Source: Podarcis bocagei (Eukaryota). Taken from it: a DNA stretch of 64,000 bases. Every line of letters starts with the position of its first letter. Within the stretch, counting starts at the first letter, position 1. Below are positions 6,211-54,349 of the stretch, in pieces. Both the position numbers and the translations under genes were made by a program. The stretch lies in NCBI GenBank assembly GCA_964188305.1, contig OZ076890.1; one strand, written 5' to 3'. The notes below the pieces were generated by a model. That model worked only from the letters and a program-made list of their open reading frames with translations. It was not told where the DNA came from and did no database searches.

Positions 6211-6351
6211 TCACAGAGTTGTAGAGTTGGAAGGGACTACAAGGGTCATCTAGTCCAACCACCTGCAATGCAGGAATTTTTCAGCCAACGTGGGGCTCAA
6301 ACCTACAACCCTGAGATTAAGAGTCTCATGCTCTACTGACTGAGCTATCCC
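6211..6351 (-). mobile_element. tRNA-Lys(CTT)-derived SINE with CR1 3' tail (POM/P.s.1-type)
   Basis: The minus strand reads GGGATAGCTCAGTCAGTAGAGCATGAGACTCTTAATCTCAGGGTTGTAGGTTTGAGCCCCACGTTGG (tRNA-Lys-like). The tail that follows is nearly identical to the CR1 3' end at 35760-35830. Confidence 0.85.
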
Positions 6352-8790: not shown

Positions 8791-11413
8791 ATGGAGAGGA
8801 GCTTTCTCACAAAGTCTCCTTGGGCTCAGCATGGGGGCGGGTAGGCAGTCCTCCTTCTCTCTCTCTCTCTCTCTCTCCCCCCCCCCCCGCACTCTCTTGT
8901 ATTATACTATAGTATAGAAGGTGGAGGGAGGTAAGTTAGTTGTGTGTGTGAGTGGGGTGCGGGGAGAGATACTTGAAGAAAGAAAGGGATATGCAAAGAT
9001 TAAAGTGCCTATTGCCTCTTCAGCTCATAGACACTTTTATGTGATTAGAAATGCATTGCTTTCAAGGGTTAGCTTTAAAGCCTTGAGCTTCTCAAGTAAG
9101 AAAACAAATAGAAATGCCGAGACCCAGTGTTCAGAGTTTGAGCTAGTCTCATGTCATTAAAGAGCCACTTTCATTTGGCACTTTCACATCTGCGTTACTG
9201 TTTCAAAGTCAAGCCAAGGTCGGCAGCAGCCATAAGTCATTGACATCTAGCGTTAGTATGGATGCATGATTCAAAAAAGAGAGAAGTGGACAGAAACCCA
9301 TCTTAATAGATACTAGAAAGATACAAGATTTTTTTTAAAAAAACCTCTATCTACTCCTTAGATCTATGAACAGGGAGGCCTCAGGGTAGTTTCATAAGTA
9401 CTTTTACCATACAAAGTTTTCAAGGATTTATGCAAAAAAGAGGTTTTCAAACCATAGTTATGAGACCGCTAGGCATTAAACATGGCGTCACTGCATGTCT
9501 AATTCTAAACCATGGTTAACACTAATCAGAAAAAGAGGGAGTATTCACTCTAGGCAAAAGAAGAAAGGGGTAGAAAAAACATTATTTATTGGTCATATTT
9601 ATATGTTGTGTGTGAATTAGTTTGTATTGATATTTTGTTGACCAGCCTGGAGTTTATTTTATTAATTAATTATATTTACTTTAATATTTACTTCATTATT
9701 TTCCAAGCCAAGTTGAGGCCAACCTAGCTCAGTAAGGGCTTCTGACTGTGTATTAGTATCAAAATATTTAGGCCACCACCACTTAAGGATGGAAATGATT
9801 TTTTTTCATATGCTATTCTCTTTGGTACTCAGTATGCATCATTACATTGACCTTATTTTTGCTCACAAAATTTAATTCCCTGTAGAGCAGGGCAGGGGAA
9901 ACTTTGGCTCACCAGTTGTTACTGGACTACAACTCCCATAATTCCTAACCATAACGTGCTGGCTGGGACTGATGGGAATTGAAGTCCAACAAAACATATG
10001 AAGGACCAAAGATTCCCCAGTCCTGCTGTTTAAAGTTCACTGCCATTGAGAGCTATTATTTGGAATTCTGACGTTAAGGCAGGTGTGTGGAATTGGTAAC
10101 CTTCCAGATGTTGTTGGACCAACCTCTGCACTGCACTTGTTTGCATCCCCCGCTTCCCAATTTCATATGAAAGAGTGGGGGGAGAGAGATCTTCTATTCC
10201 CCTAATGGACATGTGCACGTTGGGAGCAGGGCCTGCTGCCATGATGTACGGCCAGCATCCTGCCATGTGTTCTTTGTGTATGTACAGGCAGAGACCATTT
10301 CACACAGGCATGTTCTTGGCCACTGCGCACATCAGCAGAGAGTGTGCCCCATTCCGCCCCCATTCCGCCGTCTTCTGGGTCTAAAAGGACGTGCACATCG
10401 GCGATCACGCATCAATTGGACCCACCCAAAATGGCAACCGCTTGTATATGCATCACCACACACTGGCTGAAGATGATAGGAGTTGTTGTCATCCAAATAT
10501 CAGGAGGGCACCAGATCGGTAACAGCTAGCGTATAGCTTTAAATAAACCTGCACAAACGTTAGTTCCTCTTCCTTCTTCAAGATCTGGATGGTGTCTCTC
10601 GGTGCAGGCCTTAGAACCAAGGCAGCATGCAATGTACCGTAGTTAGCATTTCCTATGTTTAGAAACTTAAAAAGAAGTCTGTTGTTTAAGTTGCCAACTC
10701 TCTTCTTCGTTTCCCTCGACCGCCTCTCACCTTCCATTCTACATCATAGTTGTGGCACCTCTGCAGTTCTCCCAAGGCTCCGTGCCCAGTGCAACCAAAC
10801 TGGTCATGCTCTGGGTTACTAATTGAGCATACAATCCAAACTTGCTTTGTATTGAGCTGGGGGAGGGGAAGATTGAATTGAATTGAATTGGACTGGACTA
10901 GACTGGGCAGAGAAGGGCTATCTCCAATTTCTCAGTTTCTCATTCTTCCATTCATCACATTTCCACATCAGTGGAATTCACACCAGCATTTTAGTGTGAT
11001 GTCATGTATGTTATTTTGCATATTGTATGCTATTTCTAATAATTATCCATTTTTGTGCACACTTTTCCCCAATATATGCATTTTTAATGCATATTGTTTG
11101 GCTGGAGAACTGCATTGCATATTTGGGTGAAGTGCAAAATTCGAATAATGGCAGTACTGGAAGTTGGTAAAGAGAGCCTGTGCTGGGTCTGGGAGTGAAC
11201 AAGAAGTCAGTGTACTGTAGGCCCCAACAAAAGCCGTGGCAATAACAACACCAGATTCACCACAGAACTTTGGCCATGGTCTACTTCTTCACAGAAATCA
11301 GAAGGATGCAATACAGAAGTCTAGCCTTGAGATTAGGGTAACAAGGAACAACATTATTTGGATTAAATCTGAAACAAGAGGTGCCTTCGCTCTCACAAGA
11401 CAGATACGGTCAT

Positions 11414-11936
11414 GTTGTTTAGTCGTTTAGTCGTGTCCGACTCTTCGTGACCCCATGGACCAGAGCACGCCAGGCACTCCTGTCCTTCCACTGCCTCCCG
11501 CAGTTTGGTCAGACTCATGTTGGTAGTTTCGAGAACACTGTCCAACCATCTTGTCCTCTGTCGTCCCCGTCTCCTTGTGCCATCAACCTTTCCCAACATC
11601 AGGGTCTTTTCCAGGGAGTCTTCTCTTCTCATGAGGTGGCCAAAGTATTGGAGCCTCAGCTTCAGGATCTGTCCTTCCAGTGAGCACTCAGGGCTGATTT
11701 CCTTAAGAATGGATAGGTTTGATCTTCTTGCAGTCCATGGGACTCTCAAGAGTCTCCTCCAGCACCATAATTCAAAAGCATCAATTCTTCGGCGATCAGC
11801 CTTCTTTATGGTCCAGCTCTCACTTCCATACATCACTACTGGGAAAACCATGGCTTTAACTATACGGACCTTTGTTGGTAAGGTGATGTCTCAGTCATAG
11901 GCTCCGTGGTTTAACCCACAGCGTCACCCGCGTCCC
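11414..11936 (-). mobile_element. Chimeric retro-insertion: Sauria-SINE 5' head (about 11896-11936) fused to a Bov-B (RTE) LINE 3' end (about 11414-11893)
   Basis: ORF 11393-11851 (VMYGSESWTIKKADRRRIDAFELWCWRRLLRVPWTARRSN...LQYFGHLMRR) is the RTE/Bov-B C-terminus. The 5' end GGGACGCGGGTGACGCTGTGGGTTAAACCAC matches the heads of the Sauria SINEs in this window. TSD AGATACGGTCAT at 11402-11413 and 11938-11949. Confidence 0.88.
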
Positions 11937-13982: not shown

Positions 13983-15616
13983 AGTACTGATGAAAGGACA
14001 GTGAAGTTGTTTTCTCTGAGATTTTCAAAGGTTTCGTTTCTTTTAAATAAATTAAGAGCAGAAGCTTTCAGCACCAAACATGGATCTTGCAAAGCTCATG
14101 TTGTTCTCCCTCGCAAAAAGGAAAAGCAATGGTTGTTAACAGATTGAGTTATGTTATGCCATTTTGTCATTTACACCACCTGCTCTTGAAGAAATATTCT
14201 GTTGGCAAGAAGGCCCCTTTAACCAGATTGTTAAACAGGCTGTTCGTTGTCTTGTAGGAAGGTGTTCCAAGTTTAATTTGATTAAACCAAAGCAAGACGG
14301 TTTTAAATACCGGGAAGTAAAGCAAACAGAAACAAAAAGCATCTAGTTGTTGGTGGTGAGGAAATTTTTGGCATTGCAAGTTTGTGCTTGGGGGAGGGGA
14401 ATAATTCCATTTGCTGTTACTTTTAAAGAGGTAGAAAGGGGCAAACTGACAGACACTTTGAAGAAGGGGAAAGAAGCTGAAAGCCGCGAAGAAAAGCTTA
14501 TCATATCATATATGCCTGTGTGGAATCTTGCCCACAGCTAGCTAGTTTGCAAGAACAGCACAGTCTAAACATGCACATAATAATAAATTGGTGGTGCCCA
14601 GCCTCTTTTGGCAAGTGTGCTGCAAATCAACTCTAAAATATGACACAGGGCAACTATTGTGCTCCCTGCAGTACATTCGCAGCTCCCTTTCCGTTGGGTG
14701 TGGTTTTGCCTCTAGTCTGCCTTGTCTACACATGCAGTGGGATGAGGTAGTACGCGTGCGGAGGTGATAAATGGACTGTACCCTTTCAGATAGCAGTGTG
14801 GAGGGTCAAATTTTTTTGATGCACTTGTGAATTAAAATCTCCATGCAGTCAGAAAGCTAGCACAACATGTAATATTCTACACTAGAACCACTCTCCCTGA
14901 TGTGTTAGCTCTCCATTTGTAATAAGGTTTGTTCTGTTTTGTTGTTTAACGTGGAGGAAGCACTGCCTGTTCTCTCCCTGTTCTTTTGCCTGAAAAGGCC
15001 TTGGGCCACAGTATGTTTTTACTGTGATTTGCCCAAAACCACCCTGTGAGCTTCGCAGGCAAGATTTTTGAATGCTGATTTTTCACTTCCAAAATCAGCA
15101 TAGTACATTTATTCTGGCCGAATGCTGCATAAAATGAGAAGGGAGCTTAGCTGATTCTCAGGGACAGAATGGTCTCTTTGACATTGCTGGATTAAGCAGC
15201 AGGCTCAAGCCACAATCCTACGCATTTACCTGGCAGTAAGTCATAATGAACTTAAGGGGTCCAGCCTCTGATTAGATATGTATAGGATTGCACTTCCAGT
15301 CTCTGGTCCTGTCCACTGGAAATGACTATGTGCTGGATAGGATAGTCTAAACGACCACTAGGTGCTAACCACTACCTTGTACCAGTGGAAGCAAAGGGTC
15401 TTGTTTCCATAGACTCAGTGGTACCTGAGCATGAGACATGGAAACCCAGGGTGGTATCCAACCAAACAGTTCCAATAGCACAAGGAGATTTAGCTGTGCA
15501 AAATAACTTTCTCAATCTCTCCTCTCTCTATGCACCTGCTGCGCTCCCCATAAATCTGCTCTGAAGGGTTGCAGGGAAATCCGGAACAATTTAGCGGGTG
15601 CTAGATGATGCATGAT

Positions 15617-15971
15617 GGGACGTGGGTGGCGCTGTGGGTTAAACCACAGAGCCTAGGACTTGCTGATCAGAAGGTTGGCGGTTCAAATCCCCGTGACAGG
15701 GTGAGCTCCCGTTGCTCAGTCCCTGCTCCTGCCAACCTAGCAGTTCAAAAGCACGTCAGAGTGCAAGTAGATAAATAGGTATCGCTTTGGCGGAAAGGTA
15801 AATGGCGTTTCCGTGCGCTGCTATGGTTCACCAGAAGCGGCTTAGTCATGCTGGCCACATGACCCGGAATCTGTACGCCGGCTCCCTTGTTCAGTAAAGC
15901 GAGATGAGCGCACAACCCCAGAGTTGGACACGACTGGACCTAATGGTCAGGGGTCCCTTTACCTTTACCTT
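15617..15971 (+). mobile_element. Sauria (Squam1) SINE
   Basis: GGGACGTGGGTGGCGCTGTGGGTTAAACC head, ACCTTT tail repeats, flanking GATGATGCAT duplication. Confidence 0.9.
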
Positions 15972-16603
15972 GGATGATGCATAGGGAGAAGGGAAGTTCC
16001 ATTGTACAGTTAAAACTCTTTGCACTAGTTGGACATCACCAACTGGCACTTTATCTACACCAGAATATCTGGATGATCTTATTTTGAGGGCCACAGATGG
16101 GTAACCTGTGGCCCTCCACATGCTATTAGACTCTATCTTTCATCAGCCATGACCAGCATGGTCAGAGATAATGGGAGTTGTCAGTGGAGGTGGGGCTACT
16201 GGGGCTCTGCTCTCCTGCTGAAAATGCCAAGCAGTTTAAAAAATCTTCCTCCTTCAGATCTCAAAACCACACTCTTTCCCGTCCCCCCTCCCCCCACATT
16301 TTATACTTCCTTGAATTTACAGAGGTATTTCTGTCAATCTACTGTACTCTGGCTAGTCAGATTTCTGCACCGTTCAGCCAATCCTAATCCAAAATGGCAA
16401 AGAAATCCCACCCCTGTGTCTCTTAAACTGAAAAACCATGCAACTGATTGGACTGCCTGAATTTCAGCCCTACAAGGAGGGCTCCCACTCCAGCTGTTGT
16501 CATGAGGGCTATTCAGCACAGCCAGGACAGCAGATATGAAAGGTGTCAGGACCGCTTCAAGAATAACCTCTCATGATAGCCTTGGAGTATATCAGAATCA
16601 TAC

Positions 16604-17126
16604 TGTTACGGCTAAAATCTGGGTGCGGGGTTACTCTGCCACCCAGCTCATCGGACTAAGTCTGTGGGTCCCTGCGGAAGAAAATGAGCTCAGCCGGACA
16701 CAGGAGCAAACTGCAGAAGGTCCAAGTTTATTGCGCAACAGGTTCAAGGCGAGATTGAACCCAGAGAAAGGGGTGACATGAACTTTTGAAATTTCCCTCC
16801 ATATCCCAGAATACAGTGCAAAATACATCCCAGTTACATCATGAATACATTAAGAAGAGGTTGGGTTACACAGATTAACATATGGAGGAGGGAGGGGTGA
16901 ATATGCAGAGAGCTGGAGATATGCGCAGATAAACACATCCTGAGAAGGCAATGGTCCATGTTTGCATAGTCTGTCACCTGGCATCGCCTGGAGGAAGGGT
17001 TTGGCAGAGTGATTTTGACTGGATTACTTGAGAGATTATGGAGGACAGGGGAGGGGTGATGGAGTCCTAGAGAAATTGAGCAAATATATTGTAGTGAAGA
17101 AGACATCCCCCCCCCCTTCCGTAACA
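16604..17126 (-). repeat. 3' LTR (523 bp)
   Basis: Identical to 23122-23644 by eye except T16663 versus C23181. Preceded on the minus strand by GAATGGGGG-AC. AATAAA (minus) at 16727-16732. Confidence 0.95.
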
Positions 17127-17138
17127 GTCCCCCATTCG
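17127..17138 (-). other. Short polypurine tract candidate
   Basis: The minus strand reads GAATGGGGG-AC immediately before the TG of the 3' LTR. Confidence 0.65.
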
Positions 17139-20100
17139 GAGATAGATTTGCATTAAAGTTCTGTAAGAACTTGCAAATCTTTTCTCCGCACCCTAAATCT
17201 CGGTGAATGGGATGTGTGGCTTTATGCAAACCTGAAAGGGACTTGCAAGCCATGCCTCTTACGGTCATTTGCAAGTATAGCAGTGCAGGTAGCTGCATAT
17301 AGGGTATTATATAAAGAACACCTCTTGTATTTTGTTGCTAAATTACTTGTGGCATTCTCAATAGTGTTTTATGCTTTACACCTAGCAGGAAGGTCCACTA
17401 ATGACTGAAAAATGCAGTTGGTGTTTTGTCCTTCGCCATTTTTGTGTATTTCTCAGGTGTCAAGCTAGCTCTTCTGTGGTCTCACACTGACATAGTGCTA
17501 CAGCAACACATCCTGTCTGTTGAATCCTCTCGGGGCTTTCATTTAACCATGTTGCCTGGCATTCACCATAGCTGGCACAGGTTGGACATCTCGTGAGGGA
17601 GAGGTCTTCGCCTTGGCCTTCCTATGGGATTCTATCATAGGCTGTGGTTTTGCACGCATGGGGGTTGCTCACTTGCACTTAAAGGACCAAAAGGCTAATT
17701 GCAGCCTGGATACACTTGCCCAATTCAAACTGAGTCCAATTTGAATTTATCTTGCCCCATGGTTCTCAACTCTTCAAACCAATCTGTTAAAAGAAAACCA
17801 TTCTTAACAAGGGCAGTTGTCCAAATAAGTCAATTTAACTCTATAAGGGATCATTCCTGCTAAACCAAAGCATATGCACCTTCATGTACCTGGTGTTTTA
17901 TGGATCCAGAAGCTTGTCCTTGGCAAAACGAGGTTTAACACATTTTAAAATGGATAGGGAAAGTTGGCGGTGGAACAATTAAATGTGGTTACAAGTTGAT
18001 CTAAACATTGGACTACACAATAGTGTGAGCTACTAGAAAGTATAAAATGCATGAGAATTCTCCATTGGTGAGTAAGCAATAAGACATTAAACATAAAAAC
18101 AATTACACAGAAAAATTGCCCCCCTTTGTGGAAATCACACTGTCAGACACATTTCAACATTCTTACATAATAACACATAATACAAAACAAACTAATTAAA
18201 TATCAGTTACATATCTTGACACAATTGTGATCTTTTATGCATGTATCTTTTGAATCCTGGAGCACAGTCTTAAGGTTCAAAAGTGAGAAAATGTCCTTGC
18301 AATTCAACTCCTCCCCTTAGCCATGAGGGGTTGTTGCTGCTTTTCATCATTGTACATCTGTAGAAGTGATATCCTGTAAGGGGCAGGGTTTTGGGGAGAC
18401 TCAAAAACACAGTTAGACAAGAAAGAGGCAAAAGGCAAAAAGGATGTCCTCCAGTTTCCATGGGAAGCTGCAAATAATAACAAATCTTAGCATATTAAGC
18501 ATTTTATTTATTTCAATATTATTATCACATTTCCACATAATTACTGTTATTATCTGCTAAGTTTGTTTGCTTCCTTCACTTAATTTTTGTTGTTGTTGTT
18601 CTTTTCATATTATCAAATAAAAAATTACTCCACATGTAGAGAAAGAGAACTGTAAAAATACAAGAAAGGTTAAAAAATAAAAGGAAAGCAAAAAATTAGA
18701 TTACCAGTTAGATGAAAACAAACTTGACACAAAAACATCAGATTCAGAAAAGACCTATTATTAAATATATTATCAAAACCACGCAGATTACTACTAGACT
18801 GAAAAAAAATACAAAGGTTAAAAAATACAAAAGAAAGCAAAAAATTAGATTACCAGTTAGATGAAAACAGACTTGACACAAAGACATCAGATTCAGAAAA
18901 TAACTATTATTAAATAGTACAAAGATATTATCAAAACCACACATATTACTACTGGACTGGAAAAAAAATGGGAAAACAATGGGGAAAACTTAAAATTCAC
19001 CATGTGCTATCCAATAAAAGAACTTCATGAGACTGACTTTCAACATGTGATGAACATGTCCCCAAAGTAAAACACAAACACACAAAATGAGCTATGAGGA
19101 ACCAAAAATAAATAAATGCTAAGACACACAATTAATAAGTAACCTGAAGTAATCTGTTTTGGCATTCTAACATCCCAAATGAAAATAAAAGTGTTTCTTG
19201 ATGTGACATCAGCTGTAATGTTAATAGCGGAATACTGGGAAATGAGTTAATACCAATAAAAATGAATGGCAATTTTAAAGTTGTGCAGGTACCTTGCACT
19301 AGCCAAAATGACAGAATTAGTAAGAAATGCTCAGGCCAAAGGTAAACAAGTACCATTCCACAAACAATGTTTGGTTGTGCTTCGATTAACTTCATAGACA
19401 TCATGGAGAAACTGATTAAATAAATGAAAACAGATTATTTGTAACTTTAAAAAAAAAAATGTCAAAGGCACAAAGAGATAGAGGTCACTAATACAGCAGG
19501 GATTCAGACTTGTTTCACAGAACAGAAAGAAAGTTGCTGTTTGGCTTTTAGGGAAGAAAGACAAAAGAGAAACAAATGCAATTACTTTTTATAGAGTATT
19601 TAAATCACTGTTTGCATCCCCTCATTATCATTTGTGCTGTGGGAGAAAAGAAAGGACACTCTGTTAAAAGGGAAAATTATTTCATGTGAGAGGTCTGTCA
19701 GGAAGTGCTGTTCCTAAAATGCATAGGCATATACACACACACACACCAAAAAAAAAACAAAAACAAAAACAAAAACTTATAAAATTTAAATTCCATTGGG
19801 AGGCGAACCTTTTGTTAGCCCCTGGGGCAAGACATTAAGGGTGATTTCCCTCAATGGTTCCAAATTTTACATAAGGAAATTTGTATAGGTTTCAGGCTCT
19901 CCAAACCTTCTCTCTCCCCCCTCCTTTCTCTCTCTCTCTCTTTTGTAAGGTGATCTAGCCTCTGTGCATGTGCAGAGTTCATGCCTCAGCAAACCTTTTA
20001 TACAATTGAAAATGTTGCATCTTTTGGCTCAATTAGAATAAGGAAGGGAAAGGTAAGGAGTAGATTTTAAAATAGGGTTAGATTTTAAAACAAAAAAGAG

Positions 20101-22898
20101 AAACTCAGCAATTCAAGTATTCACCATTCAGCCCAAGCAAACTGAGACTGCTTCCTTTATGTACAGGAAAGGGCTATCATTATTGGTCATTTTATCTGGT
20201 CATTCGCGGAACAATCAACCGCTCTCTTATTTATGAGTAAAATGGCCAGGTAAGGAGTGGTTTTTTAAAATAGGGTTAGACAAAAAAGAGAAACTCAGCA
20301 ATTCAAGTATTCACCATTCAGCCCAAGCTTCCTTTATGTACAGGAAAGGGCTAATATCCCTCTGGCCATTCGCGGAACAATCAACCGCTCTCTTATTTAT
20401 GAGTAAAAATGGCCAGAGCGTTAGAATTCATAGGATTTTTTAACATTCTCAGTCATTTCAGCCTTACCATTTGCAGACAAAAAATTATTATTATTAATAT
20501 TATTATTTTCTGCGCCTTAATTTACAGGAATGGCCAAGGCTAATTGTACTTGATTATTCATTTGTATGTGCTTAAACTTTGAATTGACTTTTAAGTTTGA
20601 TTAAAAAAAAAATAGTAGACAAAATGATAAATACTGTAATCACTCAAATGCTTGATATTACCAGTTGTGCTTCAAAACATCATGGCTTTTACCTCTCACC
20701 TTTTAAAACTAAAAAGCAAAGCTAGGCTGAATTTCAACTCCATTACCACACCAGAATTTAAGAATTACCCTCCAATGCTTGCAGACCCATGTCCTTCCAC
20801 ACAGCCACAAATTGGGAGAGTTGAAAGGGACCCTGGGGTCATCTAGTCCAACCCTCCAAATATAGGGTTCACAGCAAGATTTCGCAGCAAGATTTGTACT
20901 ACCAGAGAGAGACACACATACCCATGCACACAGACACAACTGGGGAAGAGACCACAAGCCATGCGCCTATCATGTACTAAGGAAGAGGAAAATAAAAGTA
21001 CCCAACTAGTTTAAGTGAGAGTTTACTTCCTTAGACTAAAGAGTGAAAGTTCCTAGATAAATTATCTTTAAAGACTGAAGTGAACATTTTTCCTAAGATA
21101 GGGAGAGGATCTCTTATAAAGCATAGTTAAGACAGCCATAGATTTGATTTAAAAGGAATACAAACGTGACAATTTTTCCTGAACTTGCAGAGGAATAGTA
21201 AGCCTAATCTATGCCCTTTGCAGTTTCCTTTAAAGGAAGCTTACTCCGGAGTAAATTTACCTGGCACAGAATAAGGAGAAGGGGGAAAAAAAACCCTGAA
21301 AGAGACAGAGTGAAACAAGGGGGGGCATTTTCTAAGAAAAGAGGCCAGGACGTCTTATAGAGACTGATATCAGGAGCCTTACAATAACTCTTCTGTCCAA
21401 CCAAATCAAAGTTAAAACTGGACTCAAATATTTTCTTAGAATGAACACCATACTTTTATAGGCATACGCTTAATGAAATACATACACTGCATTTTAGCTT
21501 GAGAGAGCAGTTGTGCTCAACTAGGCTTTTGCAGCAGAAACATTAGGTTATCAGCACCTTCCAAAATAAGACTGTAGACTCACAATCTCAAAAGTTGGGG
21601 CAAAGCAAGAGGTGGGGTAAACATTTGCACACTTCATTCTCATCTTCTCTTATTTAGGACTGCTAAGATCCAGCATGGCTTCCTTAGATTTAAATTTTGA
21701 AGCAAGCTTGCAGTTTAAACTATGCACACTTAAGAAAGGCAGTCTGCCAGAGACAGAAGGAACAGACAACACACATAACAGACAACAGGTAAACATACAT
21801 ATTCTCATATATGTATTAACAGACAACACACATAACAGACAACATGTAAACATGTAAACATATATATTCTCATCCTTTAGTTGGTTATTGCAAGGAGTTG
21901 GGCCACTACCTTTGGCTTCATTAAGTGAAATTAGTAGGAAGGTCCCACATGGTTTTATGAGCCTCCTTGCCTCTTCAAACACACCACCAGGTAATCAGAC
22001 TGGTAGGGCTCACAACGCTTGGTTGACTGGGTACCCCTTTATAGATGCATGCGTTGCTGTTGTTGCTCTTTTGCTTTTTCCTTTTTTTGGGGGGGGGGGT
22101 CTGGGATAGAGAAGGGGAAAAAGAGGGGTTGATTAGGATTGGTATGTCTAGGGGTTTGGTATGCTTAGTACAGGGACGTATAGTAAAGAGGAGAAGGGGC
22201 TTCTAGTTGCCTGGCAACTTCCTTAGTGGGTTTTAGAGAGCTCTAGCTATCCGGTTCCTTGCGTTCCCTTTCCTATTTCCTATTTCCTTATTTCCTTATT
22301 TCCTATAACCTGGGGTCTCTTTCCACTCTGCCGGTCCTGCCCAATTCCTCATGGGCTATCCCTCCTGGCAACCTCCTACCTATCGTCACATCTCAGGAAA
22401 AGGGGCCCTACTGGACGCCCGCGCCATGCGGTGCCAGATCGGGTGGTCCCTGGATAGAATTTCGAACTGAAAATCCCCCTTGCTTTTGGAAGCGGGCTCA
22501 CGCACGGTTACGTGGCACCGACCAGTGCGGCTGGGATTGGGATAGAAAGCAAGACCCCTTCCTGCCCCCTCCGTAAGGGCGCTCGGGAAGTTCGGAAAGA
22601 GAGCTCCAACCCCTTGCTTTCAACTGGGATGCCCGTTGCGGAAAGTCGGCTGTCTTTCCAAGCCGGGTCTCACCGTCTTACTTTCGGACTCCCAATTGGT
22701 GCGGCTGGCTGGAGATTTTAAGGAAAAGGGATAGAGCTCAGAACCCCCCTTTCGGGTTGAGCAGCGGTCCACGGTCTCTCTCACTAACCGGACCAAGAGA
22801 AAGGCAAGAAGGAGCGATAGAGAGGAGGGCAGAGAATTCAGTTGCCAGGAGATTCCACCCCCTTCCCACCAGTGCACTGGATTTTCCTTTTTCCTTAT

Positions 22899-22906
22899 AC
22901 TCACGC
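22899..22906 (-). other. Candidate major splice donor in the element leader
   Basis: GC|GTGAGT about 200 nt downstream of the PBS, the usual position of a retroviral major donor. Confidence 0.55.
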
Positions 22907-23101
22907 GTCTTCTATGATGATCCCGGGATCGATGAATAATAAGCCGGCTGGATCCCTCTTTTGCTCCCCGGCTGAACTCCTAGGGCTTTCGATTACCGCC
23001 CGGAAGATGGCTGGGGGTCCAAAAGGATCTTCCCAGGCAAAATGGCCCGGAGCCGGCTGAAGATTTCGGGGCCCCCAGTCAGCAGTTCGGGAGAACCACA
23101 A

Positions 23102-23119
23102 GCCCCACGTTGGGCGCCA
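23102..23119 (-). other. Primer-binding site complementary to the tRNA-Lys(CTT) (Lys1,2) 3' end
   Basis: The minus strand reads TGGCGCCCAACGTGGGGC, the 18-nt Lys1,2 PBS, 2 nt after the LTR's terminal CA. Confidence 0.93.
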
Positions 23120-23121
23120 AC

Positions 23122-23644
23122 TGTTACGGCTAAAATCTGGGTGCGGGGTTACTCTGCCACCCAGCTCATCGGACTAAGTCCGTGGGTCCCTGCGGAAGAA
23201 AATGAGCTCAGCCGGACACAGGAGCAAACTGCAGAAGGTCCAAGTTTATTGCGCAACAGGTTCAAGGCGAGATTGAACCCAGAGAAAGGGGTGACATGAA
23301 CTTTTGAAATTTCCCTCCATATCCCAGAATACAGTGCAAAATACATCCCAGTTACATCATGAATACATTAAGAAGAGGTTGGGTTACACAGATTAACATA
23401 TGGAGGAGGGAGGGGTGAATATGCAGAGAGCTGGAGATATGCGCAGATAAACACATCCTGAGAAGGCAATGGTCCATGTTTGCATAGTCTGTCACCTGGC
23501 ATCGCCTGGAGGAAGGGTTTGGCAGAGTGATTTTGACTGGATTACTTGAGAGATTATGGAGGACAGGGGAGGGGTGATGGAGTCCTAGAGAAATTGAGCA
23601 AATATATTGTAGTGAAGAAGACATCCCCCCCCCCTTCCGTAACA
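23122..23644 (-). repeat. 5' LTR (523 bp)
   Basis: 8-bp terminal inverted repeat TGTTACGG/CCGTAACA. On the minus strand it is followed by GT and then the PBS. AATAAA (minus) at 23245-23250. Confidence 0.95.
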
Positions 23645-24351
23645 ATACATTGGTTGTGAACATGCCCAGAGCTATTTCCCTAAAGGCCAGCTTTTTTCAC
23701 AGGTTTCCTACTTCGAAGAGCTTTTTCTGTTTAGTTTAGTGGTTTTTGTGTGACCTTGAGGGAGAGAGGGAGAGAAGTGTTTTGGATAATGAAACGTTAA
23801 ATTGAGTTTTGGTTGGAGGAAAACTGTCTGCAACGAGAAGCAAGGTTTCCTCACATTTCAAAAGTTTTTGTATGTTTATTTAGGGTTTTTTTTGCAACAG
23901 ATGTGTAAACAATACATGAATTCAAAAGCTTATGTCATGTGGAATGGCTTAATTTCTAAATAAGAGGTATGGAGTCAATCTTGTCTGAGAATTATACTTG
24001 GGCCCTCTTACACAGAAGCTCTTCCACTGTCCATAGATGTGAAGTAAATAATTGGGTTTTTTGTGAGGTGTCAGTGGTACTGACAGTGGTACTCTGCACA
24101 CTTTATGTCCGAGTCCTATTGTGATAAAAGCAGCATGGTTAGATATTGCAGTCCTACTAAGTCAAAATGTTATCACCCCCAACTGGGAGTTGTAGTCCAC
24201 TGTTGTTTGGAGGACCTATCACTGTTTTAATGGCTAAAAACTGGATAATCATATTTGATGTAGTAATGTGGCCTGTGGGCATTAGGAAGTGATTATCCTC
24301 CAGCTCAGAATGGTTTGTGCCTTTTACTTTGTATTGCAGCATGACCTACTT

Positions 24352-24487
24352 CAGCCATAGGCAAACTCGGCCCTCCAGATGTTTTGGGACTACAACTCCC
24401 ATCATCCCTAGCTAACAGGACCAGTGGTCAGGGATGATGGGAGCTGTAGTCCCAAAACATCTGGCGGGCCGAGTTTGCCTATGCCTG
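24352..24487. mobile_element. hAT MITE (palindromic)
   Basis: Long inverted repeats with 8-bp TSD ACCTACTT at 24344-24351 and 24488-24495. Confidence 0.92.
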
Positions 24488-25139
24488 ACCTACTTGCTTG
24501 AGGGCTCTCATCTTGCTTTAGCAGACTACAGTATTTATTTCCCCATCAACACTTGTAATGAACCTTGATTATTACTGTTCTGTATCTGTGTATACCTAGA
24601 TCCTAACTATCATTATCTCCTTTTATATGGCCCAAACTCTCTATAGCACTTAGGTAGTGTAAGGGAAGCTGTTGCAGAGTAGATTCTTCATTTTATTCCA
24701 AGGAAGACAGACATGGCTGTAAGGCTTGCACAGGTTTCTTTTACTTAAAATGATCAGCCATTATAGTAGGATTGCATGATTTCAACTATACATGGCTGGT
24801 TGAAATTGTACAAGTTAAATCCAAGCAAGGTAGAGAGCTTAAAAACTCTTTTTTGCACCAGGTCGACTTGGGGTTACACGGCACATAAAGAGCTTTAAAG
24901 CTCTCTGACTTGCTTGGAGGGAACAGCCTACTCCACATGTCAGTTCTGGGGTGCTTGTATGAGATCTAATGGGGCCATCCAAGCTCCCACGAGATCTCGC
25001 ATGAGCATCCCTAGCCTCCCAGAGCTTGTGCTGAGCAGGTCTTACCCAGCAAGCAAGACAGAGAGCTTTAAAACTCTTTTTGCACCAGGTCTGCTTGGGT
25101 TGCCTGAACAAAAAAGCTTTTAAGCTCTCCGCCTTGCTT

Positions 25140-28835: not shown

Positions 28836-29109
28836 AAATCTCTTCCCCAACCTTACCCAAGAGTTCCAAATCAGTTTGAAATTGTGCAACCTGAATTTGC
28901 TGGTATGTGATTGAATCCTGCCTGAAAATAGAGACAGTCTGGAAGTTCCCTGGGACTCTTGGGTTTGGTTCTGGGTCAGGAATGATAGTCATTTGTAGTC
29001 GAGAATGGTACTGGAGTGGGGATTCCAATGGAATTGTGTAATAAGGCTGAAGGAGATGGGGCACTGGCGACCAGCTAATATTGTAGTGGTATTACCTTTA
29101 TGTGGATAA

Positions 29110-29475
29110 GGGACGCGGGTGGTGCTGTGGGTAAAACCTCAGTGCCTAGGACTTGCCGATTGCATGGTCGGCGGTTCGAATCCCCACGGCGGGGTGAGCT
29201 CCCGTCTTTCGGTCCCAGCTCCTGCCCACCTAGCAGTTCGAAAGCACCCCCAAGTACAAGTAGATAAATAGGTACCACTTTATAGCTGGAAGGTAAACGG
29301 TGTTTCTGTGTACTGTGCTGGTGCTGGCTTGCCAGAGCAGCTTCATCACGCTGGCCACGTGACCCGGAAGTGTCTCCGGACAGCGCTGGCGCCCGGCCTC
29401 TTAAGTGAGATGGGCACACAACCCTAGAGTCGGACACGACTGGCCCGTACGGGCAGGGGTACCTTTACCTTTTTA
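29110..29475 (+). mobile_element. Sauria (Squam1) SINE, variant subfamily
   Basis: Same head and (ACCTTT)n tail. TTTATGTGG occurs on both flanks. Confidence 0.9.
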
Positions 29476-33449: not shown

Positions 33450-35758
33450 TACAAATTTGCATTGTAGGCAGCAGTCCTGTACATACTTCCCAAATCTGAG
33501 AGTAAGCCCAGTTGAATTCAGTGGGCCTTGCTTATGAGTGGACATGCATTGTAAGTTATCCAAACTTAACATATGCGGATATGCAGGTTTTAGGGAGAGG
33601 GGACTGAACTATTTCCCCTGTTCTTGGTCCATTTAATGTTTTGGGGGGTCCATTTCTAGGAATGAAGTTTTTGTTCCCTAATTTGTTTGGATGGTAGTGA
33701 GAGATACTACCTGCACAGAAAGTGACAAACTGAAAAAGCCAAGTTTTGTTTTATTTGGGTGGGGAGTGCCCAGGGTGGGGGGAGATGCTATGGAGCAGGA
33801 CAGGATTTCACGAATCTTTACAAGGAGTCTTTTATCCCTTAACTGGCCTCACATAATTTCTGGGCTCTTTTATATACCTCTGGAGCACCACTAAGAAACA
33901 TTACACTGCCAGTGTAATTTACAGCCTTCTGAGCTACAAGGGAACTGAACTGAAACATATTTGCAGGGGAGTTTGCAGCTGCCATTTCCCCATTTTTAGC
34001 TTCACACTGTTCTCTCTTCTAGCATAAATTACGTTTTTGTTCTAATTTGAGTGGTTAGGGGTTTGATGGCTCATCAATTCATTCATTTATTCATTTAATA
34101 TATTTATATACTGCTTAATACGTAGGACAGTTTCTAAGTAGTTTACAAATAACTAATACTATATAGTAGCAATTAGACAGAGAAACCGCCAGTGTGTTGA
34201 AAGTTGAACAAAGCTACAACACAATGCAACAAAGCAATAAAATACCCCCGGATGAAAACATAGCAGTGTAGTTTGGATGTGCTGGTTGGAGCTGATGGGA
34301 GTTGTAGTCCAGCGAACATTTGGAGGGTACCAGGTTGTCTACCCTGGATTACAGCATGCAGTCAGAGCCAGTTTAACATTTTACTACGTGAAGTAGGCTA
34401 TTCTGCTGCCAGTCTCCCACCTTCCCTTCTCTTTTGTTCTGTGTAAGCTCACATCAGATCTCCACAATAAACACATGAACCAGTGTAACCTCATAGCTAA
34501 AGGGGTAATTTTATTTTGCAAAAATGGAAGGGAGCAAATTATAAAGCATTCTCTGTTACACAGCACTGTACAGCTAGTAGAATGTGTGTGTGATCCGTTT
34601 TTTGTTTTAAAGAGAGAAACCATTGCCCACAACTTAAGTAGATGACTTTTCCACAAGTCTTTTGTTATTGGAAGTGGGGTACAATAAATCAAGGGGACTT
34701 ACTGTCAAGAAACCTGGAGTAATCTTACGCAAACACCACAGTCAAATCCCCAGGACTCAAAAATGAAGAGGAGGAGGAAGGATATCTCAGAGGTAAAATA
34801 AATTATGTGAAGGAAGCCTTAGTGCAGATGTTCCTCAGTTCAAACCCCGTAAGAACAACATAACTGAGTGATCACGCTGAAAGCAGAAAGGCTGCAGCCT
34901 GCATAGTCCTGTTTGGCTCAGAACATTCCCCGCCCTGTAGTTCCATCCCTCCCCTTAAAACTCAGAAGAATTTAAGCATTGCAAACCTATTTAACTTTTA
35001 TTATGCCAGCAAATTCTAAATTCTTTTTTAAAAATTACCTTCTGAGGCTTTTGGTAGAGCATCAATCTTTACTTCCATTTAAAATGAGGATATTGCTACA
35101 GAGTCAGTACTTGGACATCAGTGCCCCAAACAGATACACAAGCACACATGGCAATAATTAAGTGCTTCCCCATGTTGCAGTTCGACATCTCTGGTGGTAT
35201 GTGTGTGAGAGTATGTGCCAAGCCAAGTGTACAAGGCCATTCCTTGGACTTTTCCCACCTCATTGCCATCTTGAGATCCAAGTATAGCTTCGGACCCTGG
35301 TACCTAAAAGAGCGCCTTCCCCACTATCAAACACCTTGAGCCATATGATAATCAGAAGAGGCCTGGTTGGCAGTGAGCCATGACAGGGCCTTCTTGGTAG
35401 TGGTTTCCCATGTGTAACGCCCTCCCTAGTGAGAGGTGTCAGTCGCCCTCATTAACTTTTAGGAGATTTTAGTAATAATTATAATAGTAATAATAGTCCT
35501 GGCAGGACTATTCTTGCATACCCATTCTTGCATACCCATCGGTAGTATCTGTAGGGCTTCTGTGAAATAAGAAGGAGGTATTGGCATGTTCAGGGGAACC
35601 CCAAAGTTTTCAGAAATAGTTTACACAATCTTTAGGTGGGGAGCCCTAAGTGTGTAAAAAGCCACAAAATAGCTCAATAAAGACTGAGAATATTCAGTGG
35701 CCGCAGATGCTGAATACCTGTTGTGGGAGACAGTTGGAAATACTAGGTGAAATGGAAC

Positions 35759-36185
35759 AGAATCATAGAATTGTAGAGTTGGAAGGGACCCCGAGGGTCA
35801 TCTAGTCCAACCTCTTGCAATGCAGGAATCACAGCTAACGCATCTATGACACATGGCCATCCAACCTCTGCTTTTAAAAAAGGAGAGTCCACAACCTCCT
35901 GAGGGAGACTGTTCCACTCCCAAACAGTGCTTACTGTCAGAAAGTTCTTGACGTTTAGTTGGAATCTCCTTTCTTGAAACTTGAATCTATTGGTACAGGT
36001 CCTAGCCCCCATGTGACAGCCCTTTACATATTTGTAGGTGGCTGTCAAATCTCCTCTCAGTCTTCTCTTTTCCAGGCTAATCATACTCAGCTCCTTCAAC
36101 TGTTCATCACAAGGCTTGGTTTCCAGACCCTTGATCATCTTGGTTGCCCTCCTCTGCACATGTTCCAGCTTCTCAATTTCCTCCT
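35759..36185 (-). mobile_element. CR1 LINE 3' end (5'-truncated)
   Basis: ORF 35743-36201 (EKLEHVQRRATKMIKGLE...SLEKRRLRGDL..YKY) is the CR1 ORF2 C-terminus. ATTCTATGATTCT tail. Confidence 0.9.
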
Positions 36186-36689
36186 CCTTCACAGTACACA
36201 TTTAAAGCACTTCTGCCTATCCTTGGCTGCTGTTTTTCTATTCCTTGGCCCTGCCTGAATCTTAAAGTCTGTGGTGTTTCTGTCTGTCTTTACGTCTCCC
36301 TCTTCTCACTGGCCAGGATCAGATTTCATTCAGTAAATGAATCATAGTCTAGTGGAAACTCCCTATGAGCTCTGCCAACAATTGCAAAGTTGATGAAAGA
36401 ACTATTTTTCAGCCAGAGTTTTGAGGAGTTTCTATTGGCTCAGTCCACTCTAGGCAAAAGCTGAGGCCTATGGCTTCACAGTTTGCAGAGAAGTGTGTTT
36501 AAATTCCCAAAAGCGATCTAGTTGCGGTTTAGGCAGTGCAGGTTGCTAGCATTTACTAAGGAGAATGACACCTGCCAATGTATCTAATATCGTCACCAGG
36601 AGCTTTGTATCTCCTGGTTGTTATTCCAGGTAGTCGCACCTTTGATATTTCTAAAAATGCTGCATTTGTTTCTCTGTTTTGTTCCACAG

Positions 36690-41199: not shown

Positions 41200-41557
41200 A
41201 AGGTACCCCTGTAAAGGGACCCCTGACCATTGGGTCCAGTTGTGACCTACTCTGGGGTTGTGGCACTCATGTCGCTTTATTGGCCGAGAGAGCCAGCGTA
41301 CAGCTTCCGGGTCATGTGGCCAGCATGACTAAGCCGCTTCTGGCGAACCAGAGCAGCGCACGAAAACGCCATTTACCTTCCTGCCACAGCAGTACCTATT
41401 TATCTACTTGCACTTTGAGGTGCTTTCGAACTGCTAGGTTGGCAGGAGCAGGGACGGAGCAACGGGAGCTCACCCCGTCGCAGGGATTTGATCCACCGAC
41501 CTTCTGATTGGCAAGTCCTAGGCTCTGTGATTTAACCCACAACACCACCTGTGTCCC
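41200..41557 (-). mobile_element. Sauria (Squam1) SINE
   Basis: Reverse complement of the family. TSD GTCATGCTCTTA at 41188-41199 and 41559-41570. Confidence 0.9.
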
Positions 41558-42011
41558 TGTCATGCTCTTATGGTGCTCCAAAACATGAGTTTGGGCCACT
41601 GCACAAGATCACAGCCTTGGAAAAAGCCCTGAATGCACAATATCACAACACCCAAAATGGCCACTGTGCTTTTGCGGGGGGGAGGGGGCAGGGGAGATCT
41701 GTTTTTCCGAGACACTTGTGTGGTATGTATTACTTTCTATGATATGAGTTGTTTATTTTAAATGCTAAAAAAGAGAGGAAACACATCACCTCCCTAAAGA
41801 GGACATAAAACTTGCAAATGTAGAATGAGTTACTATTATAGAAATACAGAGCACCTTACTGTAGTGAGGTGATTGTGACCAGGTGAGCTGCGTGCTTGCT
41901 CAGTCCAAGTGCTGTTGATGGGCAGCTTCAAGGCCCCTGATCTCTCTCTTCTTATGCTCCTTTGTCTTTAAACTGGGCTTGGACTGGATATTTCCTTCAA
42001 ATAGTGGATAA

Positions 42012-42362
42012 GTAAAGGTAAAGGGACCCCTGACCATTAGGTCCAGTCGTGACCGACTCTGGGGTTGCGGCGCCCATCTCACTTTATTGGCCGAGGGAGC
42101 CAGCGTACAGCTTCCGGGTCATGTGGCCAGCATGACTAAGCGGCTTCTGGTGAACCAGAGCAGTGCACGGAAACGCCGTTTCCCTTCCCGCCGGAGCGGT
42201 ACCTATTTATATACTTGCACTTTGATGTGCTTTCAAACTGCTAGGTGGGCAGGAGCAGGGACCAACAACGGGAGCTCACCCCGTCGCAGGGATTCGAACC
42301 GCCGACCTTCAGATCGGCAAGCCCTAGGCTCTGTGGTTTAACTCACAGCACCACCCGTGTCC
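42012..42362 (-). mobile_element. Sauria (Squam1) SINE
   Basis: Reverse-complement copy with an AAAGGTAAAGGG tail on the + strand. Confidence 0.9.
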
Positions 42363-43052
42363 TTCAAATATAGTCCTCAATAAATTAGGACCCATGGCCA
42401 CCCTACTGAGGAGAGAGAGGCCACAGCCTGAGAGTTACAAAACCTTTAACAAAACTTAACATTGGTTTAGAGACAGCGGTACTGTGAGTGATCCCAAAAT
42501 TGGGAAGCATGCAGGGGCTGTCTGGAAGCATAAACATGATGACCCTAACTTAATAAAGCGAGGCATCCCTGCCAGGGAAAAATCAGTTTTCCCATTCTGT
42601 TGTGCATATTGATTTTAATGGGCTCACAGCTAACCTAGGTCCAGACATTCCCAGCAGGAGATATTGCAGTTAAAAACATTGGCAGTGGGTGGCACAAAGC
42701 TAATCCAAGCTCATACCAATTTTTGCAGAAGGCAAAGCTGCGTGCCATCCAGAATGGTGAACTTTGCCAAGTCAGTGAGAACTTTGTTGTGAATACTAGT
42801 TTCGGCTCCAAGCAACACAGGAAATGTGTATGTGGACTGTCTGTGTTGGTGGTACAGTAGCAAGTTTCTTAGCTTTTTAAACATATTTTTTTATGAAAAG
42901 ATTTTTTTTCATTGCTCTTGTAGGAATTGAAGCCACTCATACAGGTAATCAGTGTCTGCATTCTCCTACAGAGGAAGATCAGTATCTTTTCTGAGTACTG
43001 CCACATATGATCTACAAATAGGAACACTCCTGGTGGGTCTCAATGATGCTAG

Positions 43053-44418: not shown

Positions 44419-44554
44419 CAGGCATAGGCAAACTCGGCCCTCCAGATGTTCTGGGAGTACAACTCCCACCATCCCTAGCTAACAGGACCAGTGGTCAGGG
44501 ATGATGGGAGTTGTAGTCCCAGAACATCTGGAGGACTGAGTTTGCCTATGCCTG
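44419..44554. mobile_element. hAT MITE (same family as 24352-24487)
   Basis: Near-identical sequence. TSD CTTTATAG/ATTTATAG. Confidence 0.9.
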
Positions 44555-46470
44555 ATTTATAGGACCCATAGGAACATGCCGTTAGCAAAGTCACTTAAAT
44601 TGTTTTGGTGCTGTTTAAGAACGATGTCTAAGACACTGCAGCAGGAGCTAATTTATGGAAGAATGCTAGCAGGAGTCTTGTTCTGTTATTCATTTTAGAA
44701 GATATTCTTGCCAATCCCCGTCTGTACACAGCAGTGGAATTTCTTCAGAATTGTGAAGGAGAATGATGGCCTAAATAAGCATTGGTTGCTGAGCTACTGG
44801 ACTCAACATCAAGAAGGAAGAGCATTTGTTTTGGGTGGTCCAGGTCAGTAAAAAGTTGGAGCAATGAGATGAAATGAAATGAAATGAAATGAAGCAGAGT
44901 AAAATGTAGGCAGAATATCAGAAGTTTCTTAGAATTAGCTCCAGGAAAGAAATGTTTGTTAAAAGTTTTGAAGACTGTCCATTCAATATTGTGACTGATA
45001 TCTCCTTCCTGACTGATGTTAGACTGGCGCCTTTCTTGCTGAACTTCAGGCACATGGCAAAAACTCTTATTCCAGCAGGCATTTTAAGGTACTGTTTGGT
45101 TTGATTATGACTTTTTATTATTTTATTTGCTATAGGGTTTATTTTTATATACATGGCTTAGAAATGTAATTAAGCAATATATAAAGGTCTTAAGCAGGAC
45201 ATTTGATTCTTCTGCTTGCTTTGAGATGGAGGCCCATATAGTGCTTTAGAGATGAACCCAGTGGGTGGTATAGCCAGGAACATATTACTTCATTTCATAC
45301 CCATGTAACAAAACATGTGCCCTTAAAATATAGGTAGACTGTTGAACCAACAACTTTACCTGTTGCTGTCTAAGAGGCAAAAGACATGCAGTTATATCTG
45401 ATGGGCTTGCTCATCCTCTTGTGGTTGTGGTTTTTATATATGGATTTAGAACGAGAGCCCGACTTATCCCAAAAACTCATGAAAGGTTACTGTTAACATG
45501 CCCCTCAAAGCTATGTTTCTGCCTGTCCTAAAGGCTTTATTGTAGCTAACAGCAATGCTGTCTTCTGGGGGTACTCAGGGGTACACAGTACTGGCACTGC
45601 CCCCCCAGGAAGAGCACTGGCTAACAGGATTACTGAAAGGTGCTGTCCATGTCGAGGGGGAATTTTTTTAGCTCTTAATCAAGCAGGCAGGGGCCATGTT
45701 AGATCAACATCTTAGCTAGCCTAGCCATGCAATCCACCTGCTGTCCCTTTTCTTTGGCTATGTCCCACACTGATTTCAAGTTTAACTTCTTCATCCCAGA
45801 AGAGCCAGGACAGTGAGTGTTCCTAATGTAATGGGTGAGAAGGATAATACTACATGGAGGTGCTGGTTGCCACCAGCAATAGTTGACTTAGAGCCCGGTG
45901 CTGTGGGACAAGTAGGGACAAGGAAGAAATTTTATTCAGTTCACATTTAAGGGTGCATCTATAAAATTTACACTTTCCAGAACAATGCACAAACTGAAAA
46001 TTGAAATTCTCACTTCTCAGATTTTTGCAGGGCAGTTTTCTGCTTAAGTAGTTTTACAGAAATGCATATATGAAGGCAAATGCAAAATGCAGAAACTGCT
46101 TTGAGGTGTGCTTTTTCTACAATCAAGACGTATATAAATTTTATGAAACAAATTTTTATGAAACAAATAAACAGATCTGTTAGTGAAAATAACATACCAA
46201 ATGCTTTATATCAGGGAAAACTGCTTTGCAAAAATGTGTTATCTTCGGCAACAGTACATACAAAAATATGTATATCAGGAGAAATTGCTCTAAAACGTTG
46301 GTAAATTTTCACAAGGACTTTTTTAAAAAAAGACTGTAAACTTACATGGGTATGTGGAGAACTTAAAATTGAAAAATGAGAAACCAAGAGAAACCAAAAT
46401 GGACAGATTCAATCAAGAGAGTTGACAGCTAAAAACAGGATGAAGTAAATACTCCCCACATTAAATGTGG

Positions 46471-49128: not shown

Positions 49129-49405
49129 CTATATATTAGGGATGCGGAGCCTGTATCCCTTCAGATGGCAGGCTGCTGAGCTCTACATCCAAAAACACAA
49201 TGATCACTTCCTCAACTGAACCAGCAATGTTCCTTGTGGAGAAAGACCCTATGCCACCTACTTTTTCTGCAGCAGGTGGAGTTTTTTTCTGATAGATCTT
49301 CTGTCCAGAAAGAAGATTTCAAACCTGAGATTAGAGAGTGTTCAGGATGGATGAGTTGTTAATGCTTGCAGTTGTGTCAACCTCCCAGCACCTTCGAGCT
49401 GCCTA

Positions 49406-49744
49406 AAGGTAAAGGGACCCCTGACCATTAGGTCCAGTCGTGACCGACTCTGGGGTTGTGGCGCTCATCTCACTTTATTGGCTGAGGGAGTCGGCGTACA
49501 GTTTCCGGATCATGTGGCCAGCAAGACTAAGCCGCTTCTGGCGAACCAGAGCAGTGCACGGAAACGCCGTTTACCTTCCCGCCTATTTATCTACTTGCAC
49601 TTTGATGTGCTTTCAAACTGCTAGGTTGGCAGGAGCAGGGACTGAGCAACGGGAGCTCACCCCGTCACGGGGATTCGAACTGCTGACCTTCTGATCGGCA
49701 AGTCCTAGGCCCTGTGGTTTAACCCACAGCGCCACCCGCGTCCC
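49406..49744 (-). mobile_element. Sauria (Squam1) SINE
   Basis: TSD TTCGAGCTGCCTA at 49393-49405 and 49745-49757. Confidence 0.92.
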
Positions 49745-53516: not shown

Positions 53517-53790
53517 ATGTAGACCAGCCAAGATTTATCGGACTTGATCTTAAAAGCCTGCCAAACTCTTGTGGGCTTGCAATTCTGAACATACGTTGTT
53601 TCACAGAGCAGGGATCCATGTGCTACCTACCGTGAGAGGACTGCAAAAAGCTAGCCAGCAGTGCAAAAGTTTACGTGAATCTACTTTCAAGAATGGCCAC
53701 ATGTGAAACCCCACTAGTTAAATGAGGTTTTTCTATTCTAAGCAAATCACTTAAACACAACAGAAACTCTGAAGAAACCATAGAAATGTA

Positions 53791-54349
53791 CCGTATTTTT
53801 CGCCCTATAGGACGCACTTTTTCCCCTCCAAAAATGAAAGGTGTGTGCGTCCTATGGGGCGAATGCAGGTTTTTGCTGAAGCCTTGAGAGCGGAGGGGTC
53901 GGTGCGCACCAACCCCTCTCGCTCTCCAGGCTTGAGGATAACAGCCTGCATCTCGAAGCCTGGGGCGCGCTGCACAGCGCACCCCGGGCTTTGGTTCCCC
54001 GACCTGTTTTGGAGGCTGGCAGTGGGGAGAAGCGCGCTTCTCCCTGCCTGAAGCCCAAACCAGGTCGGGGAACAGCGGGATGGTGGCGCTCCGCCTCCCC
54101 GCTGTCCCCCGACCTGGTTTGGGCTTCAGGCAGATATCCGCAAGGCATGGGAGCCCGGTGGGAAGTCGCGCCAGTCTCCCAAGGCTTGCGGAGAGCTGCC
54201 TGTTCTGGGGGCTGGGGTCGGGGGAAGCTCGGGCTTCCTCTGCCCCAGCCCTGCGCCTGGGGGGGAAATAATTTTTTTTTCTTTATTTCCCCCCAAAAAA
54301 ACTAGGTGCGTCCTATGGGCCAGTGCGCCCTACGGGGCGAAAAATACGG
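53791..54349. mobile_element. pogo/Tc2-like MITE with GC-rich interior
   Basis: TA-CCGTATTTTTCGCCC...GGGCGAAAAATACGG-TA with subterminal repeats of GTGCGTCCTATGGG. Confidence 0.88.

Follow-up and report, generated by a model that had tools for sequence, protein, structure and literature searches.

Endogenous retroviruses (ERVs) that keep only their cis-acting signals make up one of four standard ERV categories and occur in zebrafish as well (PMC8672886). Mouse ETn, which has no coding capacity and is bounded by long terminal repeats (LTRs), takes its proteins in trans from its coding-competent relative MusD, and near-identical LTRs shared with this helper, ~240 copies and documented trans-mobilisation are described for it (PMC1331978, PMC6466679). 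VL30 is the mouse ERV co-packaged with murine leukaemia virus (MLV). It belongs to class I, is non-autonomous and depends on gamma-type proteins (PMC6466679), with LTRs of 436-681 bp, stop-ridden gag/pol regions and priming by Gly, Gln, Pro, Met or Thr tRNA (PMC4859993). An ERV-beta4_1B-type element in the mouse Ednrb s allele is a class II, non-coding, 5-kb derivative of 15-20 copies that keeps its LTRs and its 5' and 3' internal ends, with 3' internal homology to the helper shown, around a non-retroviral middle (PMC6466679). Here we describe a 7-kb LTR element at 16604-23644 of a 64,000-nucleotide stretch of Podarcis bocagei DNA (contig OZ076890.1, assembly GCA_964188305.1; the window), and consider it probable, on sequence comparison, that it is a non-autonomous ERV derived from, and reliant on, a family of gamma-like class I ERVs in Podarcis-type lizards.

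The element resembles ETn, whose interior is mostly non-retroviral and which is primed by a Lys tRNA, in being LTR-bounded, gene-free and tied to a coding ERV; MusD, however, is a class II betaretrovirus, whereas the relative of the lizard element is class I with a Pol like that of MLV. It resembles VL30 in class, size and LTR length, but carries no gag/pol remnant and has a tRNA-Lys1,2 primer-binding site (PBS). As in ERV-beta4_1B, the 5' end of a coding ERV is kept around a middle without retroviral homology, although the tie is to class I and not to class II. Plant large retrotransposon derivatives (LARDs), which are derived from Ty3/gypsy and combine long LTRs, a PBS and a polypurine tract (PPT) with a long non-coding interior, share that interior between LTRs, but the lizard element is tied to a retrovirus. 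Closest is a Podarcis class I ERV (gene models P0001 and P0003; Gag P0002/P0056; Pol P0004, P0059 and P0009) that shares the primer-site region and leader; its gene models hold Gag, protease, reverse transcriptase (RT), RNase H and integrase, whereas the element encodes none of these. By analogy, the element would work like ETn, VL30 and the ERV-beta4 derivative, yet would belong to none of them. Elements of this kind are familiar, and what is likely added here is the tie to a specific helper lineage.

Anatomy, age and absence of genes

All the signals of a provirus from one integration are present, namely two LTRs, a PBS, a short putative PPT and a target-site duplication (Table 1). The element reads on the minus strand, an orientation that the first-pass annotation had not given, with the PBS and leader beside the 23122-23644 LTR, and the purine run before the other LTR is assigned its PPT role from position. 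The LTRs differ at 1/523 positions (LTR position 60 on the plus strand, T/C), the sole mismatch being CG versus TG, a CpG transition. Their ends form an 8-nt inverted repeat, with 2-nt spacers of GT between LTR and PBS and of AC between PPT and LTR, and the PBS is identical to the tRNA-Lys1,2 18-mer as printed in PMC8775094. Since ATAC is duplicated only at the outer flanks, and no duplication is specific to either LTR, the structure reflects a single insertion and not two solo LTRs. A self-search of the 64-kb window detected neither a further LTR nor another copy of the interior. The first-pass annotation, a reading of the letters alone, had reported two 523-bp LTRs with one difference, an intact ATAC duplication, a perfect 18-mer Lys1,2 site and ends reading AC-TG...CA-GT, all of which we confirm.

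The single difference corresponds to K = 0.0019 (Poisson 95% range 0.00005-0.0107), which at the Podarcis rate of 1.98e-9 per site per year (PMC8760935) dates the insertion to ~0.48 million years (My) ago, with a range of 0.012-2.7 My. The insertion is recent, but the earlier description of it as very young is only loosely supported, the range of 0.01-2.7 My being wider than that wording implied. CpG sites mutate fast, and because the mismatch is a CpG the lower part of this range is likelier.

An exact octamer motif lies at 17146-17153, 19 nt from the 3' LTR and amid similar short palindromic words, and could act as an enhancer outside the LTR; the plus strand of the whole window has it only twice.

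The element has no detectable coding capacity for Gag or Pol. No stop-free frame wholly inside the interior exceeds 120 codons, and in Pfam searches, with stops read as X, 0/6 whole frames matched at E<=1, while 5 of the 78 fragments gave weak, unrelated, non-retroviral matches (best E 0.007, all under curated cut-offs). Three minus frames searched against PDB returned 0, 1 and 1 chance matches (E 0.44-1), one plus frame of 17129-18400 returned four at E 0.44-1.5 with nothing meaningful among them, and Rfam gave two weak matches within the element (E 0.074 and 0.92), far under gathering scores. With 21 lizard-named proteins bearing Gag, Pol or Env as tblastn queries, the leader alone was matched (next best E 0.22). 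Frameshift-aware alignment of eight of these proteins to both strands of 17127-22390, with eight shuffles each, left 16/16 tests within their shuffled nulls, whereas the leader, as positive control, scored 221 versus a null maximum of 45. Six of eight targeted gag matrix tests were equalled by 31-134/200 shuffles. The profile and TBLASTN searches that the first-pass annotation had proposed therefore detected no degraded gag or pol, and its claim of an interior without gag, pol or env or any recognisable remnant holds for coding traces (Pfam, PDB and the 21 proteins) but not for the first 730 nt, which are a recognisable retroviral leader.

Several individual candidates were set aside. An RT-motif look-alike near 19800-19840 on the minus strand had no RT match and was equalled by 127/200 and 118/200 shuffles, as expected by chance, and an Env remnant sought with sister-family Env tails was likewise at chance (33/100 and 65/100 shuffles), the Env-bearing models tested belonging to a sister family that is 61-65% identical to P0009 in the integrase part. 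A 6-residue word common to the core and one of 18 proteins, in a Gag tail context, was judged to be chance. Finally, a captured immunoglobulin-like gene at 17457-18070 on the plus strand, suggested by the octamer and splice-like sites seen by eye, showed no V-domain in Pfam or, for one frame, in PDB, where the four matches fell elsewhere, and was rejected.

The leader and its coding relative in Podarcis

When one minus frame of 19522-23121 was compared with 1.84 billion representatives, the single match, at E 2.9e-11, was the Podarcis lilfordi gene model P0001 (CAI5783792.1). This protein has Pfam matches to Gag_p30, RVP, RVT_1, rve and MLVIN_C, with only MLVIN_C above its curated cut-off; the other domains fall short because the gene model is fragmentary. 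Aligned to the leader, P0001 gives eight exact blocks, collinear and in three frames, running from 23118 to 22427, the best of which, the first stretch, matches at 38/41 residues. P0003 (A0A670J9Q7, P. muralis) contains leader residues matching 22570-22391 at 79% in four collinear exact blocks and, independently of P0001, joins them to a Gag_p30 domain; the leader match E-values are 2e-18 for P0001 and 3e-22 for P0003. The annotation of P0001 evidently ran through the non-coding leader of a gag-pol provirus. The close match of the leader to this relative, while the genes have left no trace, makes replacement or deletion far likelier than decay as the source of the gene-free interior. The leader is presumed to be a putative packaging region; its CpG observed/expected ratio (o/e) is 0.68 at 22300-23121, and a donor-like motif stands at 22905.

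The end of P0003 overlaps the Pol model P0009 at 34/35 residues. P0009 represents a cluster of 6 and contains domains for RT, RNase H and integrase, along with YVDD and motifs of the integrase type. The Gag models P0002 and P0056 give capsid and zinc-knuckle matches. In PDB, P0009 matched MLV-type RT at 1e-161, foamy-type Pr125Pol at 1e-42 and HIV-type RT at 1e-14 or weaker, the virus names of several of these entries being presumed. An RT tree built from 12 named proteins, rooted at its midpoint and lacking an outgroup, groups P0009, P0004 and P0059 in a single clade (100/99), which lies inside a lacertid group distinct from the bird sequences. The relative thus carries the marks of class I in its Gag_p30 capsid, its MLV-type integrase C-terminus and an RT nearest to MLV. 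MLV duplicates 4 nt of its target, and the 4-nt duplication of the element agrees with this value. A foamy-like or class II origin, which the Lys1,2 PBS had prompted, was rejected, the RT of P0009 being nearest to the MLV type and not to the spuma-, beta- or lentiviral types, and primer identity is described as an unstable classifier (PMC4724089). The likely helper would be a gamma-like ERV family of class I that occurs in two or more Podarcis species and that our sources do not name. The first-pass annotation had proposed a search for a gag-pol element with the same LTR ends and PBS; by protein-level comparison, the leader and PBS region are common to the element and this coding relative.

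Side observations on these gene models bear on their annotation. The P0001 and P0003 models translate non-coding retroviral leader. The lacertid models P0001, P0003, P0006 and P0012-P0014 are stitched proviral sequence, and all of them but P0003 are named 'NYNRIN-like'. Beyond its integrase C-terminal domain, the Pol of the relative also ends in an unusual tail, a tandem repeat of ~12-13 residues (P0009 C-terminus; P0001 ~700-760).

Origin of the non-coding core

The core differs from the DNA around it, with a GC content of 0.375 versus 0.408-0.458 in 10/10 flank windows and a window-repeat cover of 1.1% versus 6-23% in the same ten, a cover equalled in 3/187 sliding windows; CpG o/e falls to 0.17 in its middle. 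It contains two tandem duplications (Table 1), a third internal duplication with 2 mismatches in 48 columns, and a repeat relic, which we take to be a CR1 3' end, whose host copies at 35775-35835 and 6212-6260 are 60/67 alike. The duplications are ~5% diverged and the relic ~16%, versus 0.19% between the LTRs, and the core therefore predates the insertion. Its sense strand (18100-22299, minus) has T at 0.356 and A at 0.281, unlike retroviral coding DNA, which is typically A-rich, and acceptor-like sites over the interior number 10 on the sense strand versus 3 on the antisense strand.

Poly(A) signals of the form A[AT]TAAA are depleted on the sense strand of the core, where there are 2 (at one site, 18508-18512) versus 8.86 expected, a count as low as which arose in 5/1000 local shuffles; the antisense strand has 17 versus 13.5 expected, and 16/16 flank strand-windows lie above expectation. 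Taken singly, ATTAAA carries the deficit (3/500) and AATAAA is not significant (99/500), and the hexamer test was chosen after the raw counts had been noticed. This deficit, the best positive sign in the core, fits a sequence read through as LTR-to-LTR RNA.

Folding gave z below -2.4 in 3/42 windows. The hairpin module at 20318-20425 is a candidate RNA cis element or, since both strands fold, perhaps an inverted-repeat relic; its duplicate partner at 20128-20255 is weaker (z -1.4 and -2.6). The structured stretch beside the purine tract was refolded after its selection from the 42-window scan.

Derivation from, and reliance on, the class I family most reasonably fits these observations, and a number of points weigh against it. 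The link to the helper comes from predicted proteins and not from DNA, and the helper frames are themselves gene predictions. The leader does not fold more strongly than expected (mean z across 7 windows, -0.18), and the T-richness and poly(A) avoidance of the core could have been inherited from a captured host transcript. Exact look-up found other copies for 0/10 open reading frames (ORFs), core copies were found in 0/222 candidates from one frame of 16837-18333, and the core went unmatched in the one minus frame of 19522-23121, a thin search of predicted proteins; these protein-level copy searches covered one of six frames each, among predicted proteins only, and had little power for non-coding copies. 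The first 30 Gag residues, a low-complexity stretch, were equalled by 3/200 and 5/200 shuffles, results that count as one observation because the two proteins are near-identical, and a tiny gag stub ending at 22246 may be present. Furthermore, no Env could be recovered for the closest family, and the Env comparison was with the sister family only.

The alternative that survives best, though we regard it as unlikely, is a one-off recombinant in which the helper genes were swapped once for a host transcript or intron, leaving a single insertion and no family. No other copy was found, and the host-repeat relic, the microsatellite-like runs and the intron-like T-richness of the sense strand all suit a captured host sequence, but the copy searches would hardly have detected non-coding copies, the repeat cover of the core is a tenth of that in the 10 flank windows, all of which also exceed it in GC, and the four-fold depletion of poly(A) signals on one strand suggests repeated passage through RNA. 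Less probable again is a simple deletion derivative, still non-autonomous but viral throughout its interior, in which gag-pol was lost and the core is the long diverged 3' region (env/accessory) of the helper. Such an origin would accommodate the unrecovered Env of the closest family and the weak possible gag stub ending at 22246 (3/200), yet Pfam shows no match to TLV_coat or any other Env model, the sister-family Env tails are at chance (33/100, 65/100), and neither the integrase end nor the tail of P0009 matches the core.

Decay of an old provirus in place, followed by homogenisation of its LTRs through gene conversion, is very improbable. CpG is scarce in the middle of the core (o/e 0.17), where old duplications also lie, and LTR conversion, a known pitfall of LTR dating, could conceal age; the PBS (18/18, with its CpGs kept) and the CpG-rich leader are nevertheless intact outside the LTRs, 38/41 leader residues are kept against traceless gag and pol, and the target-site duplication is intact. 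The earlier claim that the genes were not lost by decay at this site is supported, with the leader kept, the genes traceless and the core older than the insertion. Two independent solo LTRs with host DNA between them, a refutation that the first-pass annotation had named, or an error of assembly are scarcely credible, since the outer flanks alone form the one duplication, neither LTR has its own, the PBS, leader and purine tract occupy proviral positions, and the core is unlike the flanking DNA.

Table 1. Features of the element and its core (window coordinates)
Feature	Position	Strand	Remarks
Target-site duplication, left, ATAC	16600..16603		identical to right copy; no extension to 5 or 6 nt
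3' LTR, 523 nt	16604..17126	-	poly(A) signal ~16727-16732; single CpG transition at 16663
Non-coding core, 5.26 kb	17127..22390	-	AT-rich; sense strand T-rich; poor in CpG, window repeats and sense-strand poly(A) signals
Purine run, polypurine-tract-like, short	17129..17137	-	8/9 purines; 2 nt before 3' LTR
Structured stretch beside purine tract	17140..17285	-	z -3.5 minus (0/200 shuffles), -2.4 plus
Tandem duplication, ~150 nt x 2	18654..18953		7 mismatches/139 aligned columns, plus indels
Tandem duplication, ~170-200 nt x 2	20051..20414		8/165 mismatches, plus indels; overlaps hairpin module
Hairpin module, multibranch stem and second hairpin	20318..20425	-	z -4.8 minus, -3.9 plus; 0/200 shuffles each
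Decayed host interspersed-repeat fragment, ~60 nt	20806..20875	-	~82% to 35775-35835 (E 3e-8) and 6212-6260 in the self-search; 83-85% to window copies for the ~60-nt relic
Retroviral leader	22391..23121	-	CpG-rich; common to Podarcis class I gag-pol ERV
Primer-binding site, tRNA-Lys1,2	23102..23119	-	18/18 identity
5' LTR, 523 nt	23122..23644	-	LTR pair comparison
Target-site duplication, right, ATAC	23645..23648		matches left copy

Proposed mobilisation and the surrounding window

We propose a model for a non-autonomous ERV mobilised by the Podarcis class I family, the steps of which we infer from general retroviral biology. A full-length RNA would be transcribed from the 5' LTR and end at the poly(A) signal of the 3' LTR, and the leader would allow the Gag of the helper to package it. 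The RT of the helper would then copy the RNA, primed by tRNA-Lys1,2, and its integrase would insert the copy with a 4-nt duplication. The core would have aged in earlier copies, so that the element was already gene-free when it arrived, roughly within the last 0.01-2.7 My. The first-pass annotation had likewise proposed a non-coding RNA using the proteins of another element; an RNA phase fits the loss of poly(A) signals and a gag-pol relative has been found; movement in trans by an active helper in this genome, as it predicted, is putative.

A stronger form of this model, in which the element is a mobile, multi-copy RNA parasite of a gamma-like retrovirus with a non-viral 5-kb core, purged of sense-strand poly(A) signals and equipped with its own duplicated export or packaging hairpin, is a doubtful but conceivable extension. 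If true, it would make the element a reptile counterpart of ETn/MusD, polymorphic in wild populations, that might cross between Podarcis lineages inside helper particles.

In the helper-parasite ERV pairs of mice, the non-coding partner is reported to be behind most new ETn/MusD mutations (PMC6466679). A young wall-lizard pair of a class I helper and an element whose core is free of retroviral traces would extend such pairs to squamates, whose repeat annotation was still sparse in 2017 (PMC5381603), and might also give rise to insertion polymorphism in lizards that are widely studied in population genomics. Surveys of ERVs based on Pol would miss such elements. Among the literature matches listed, titles and abstract openings contain no description of the family, which supplements, Dfam or Repbase may hold.

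No host coding exon was recognised in the window, where 0/43 long ORFs matched at E<=0.01 and 27 of the 32 candidate exons, when searched, gave one weak match (E 0.058). Two stretches at 58000-59400 and 53671-54357 are richer in GC and CpG and may mark a promoter. Open frames at 11393-11890 and 35743-36201 (minus) have no Pfam match and presumably resemble the 3' ends of RTE/BovB-type and CR1-type RTs of long interspersed nuclear elements. Palindromic repeats of ~135 nt at 24351-24488 and 44419-44555, 93% alike, probably belong to a family resembling miniature inverted-repeat transposable elements, and the first of them matches microRNA-precursor models under gathering scores. Finally, a repeat of ~350 nt resembling a short interspersed nuclear element occurs in both orientations at 15614-15968, 29108-29472, 41211-41558, 42012-42364 and 49404-49747, its copies being mostly 83-92% alike.

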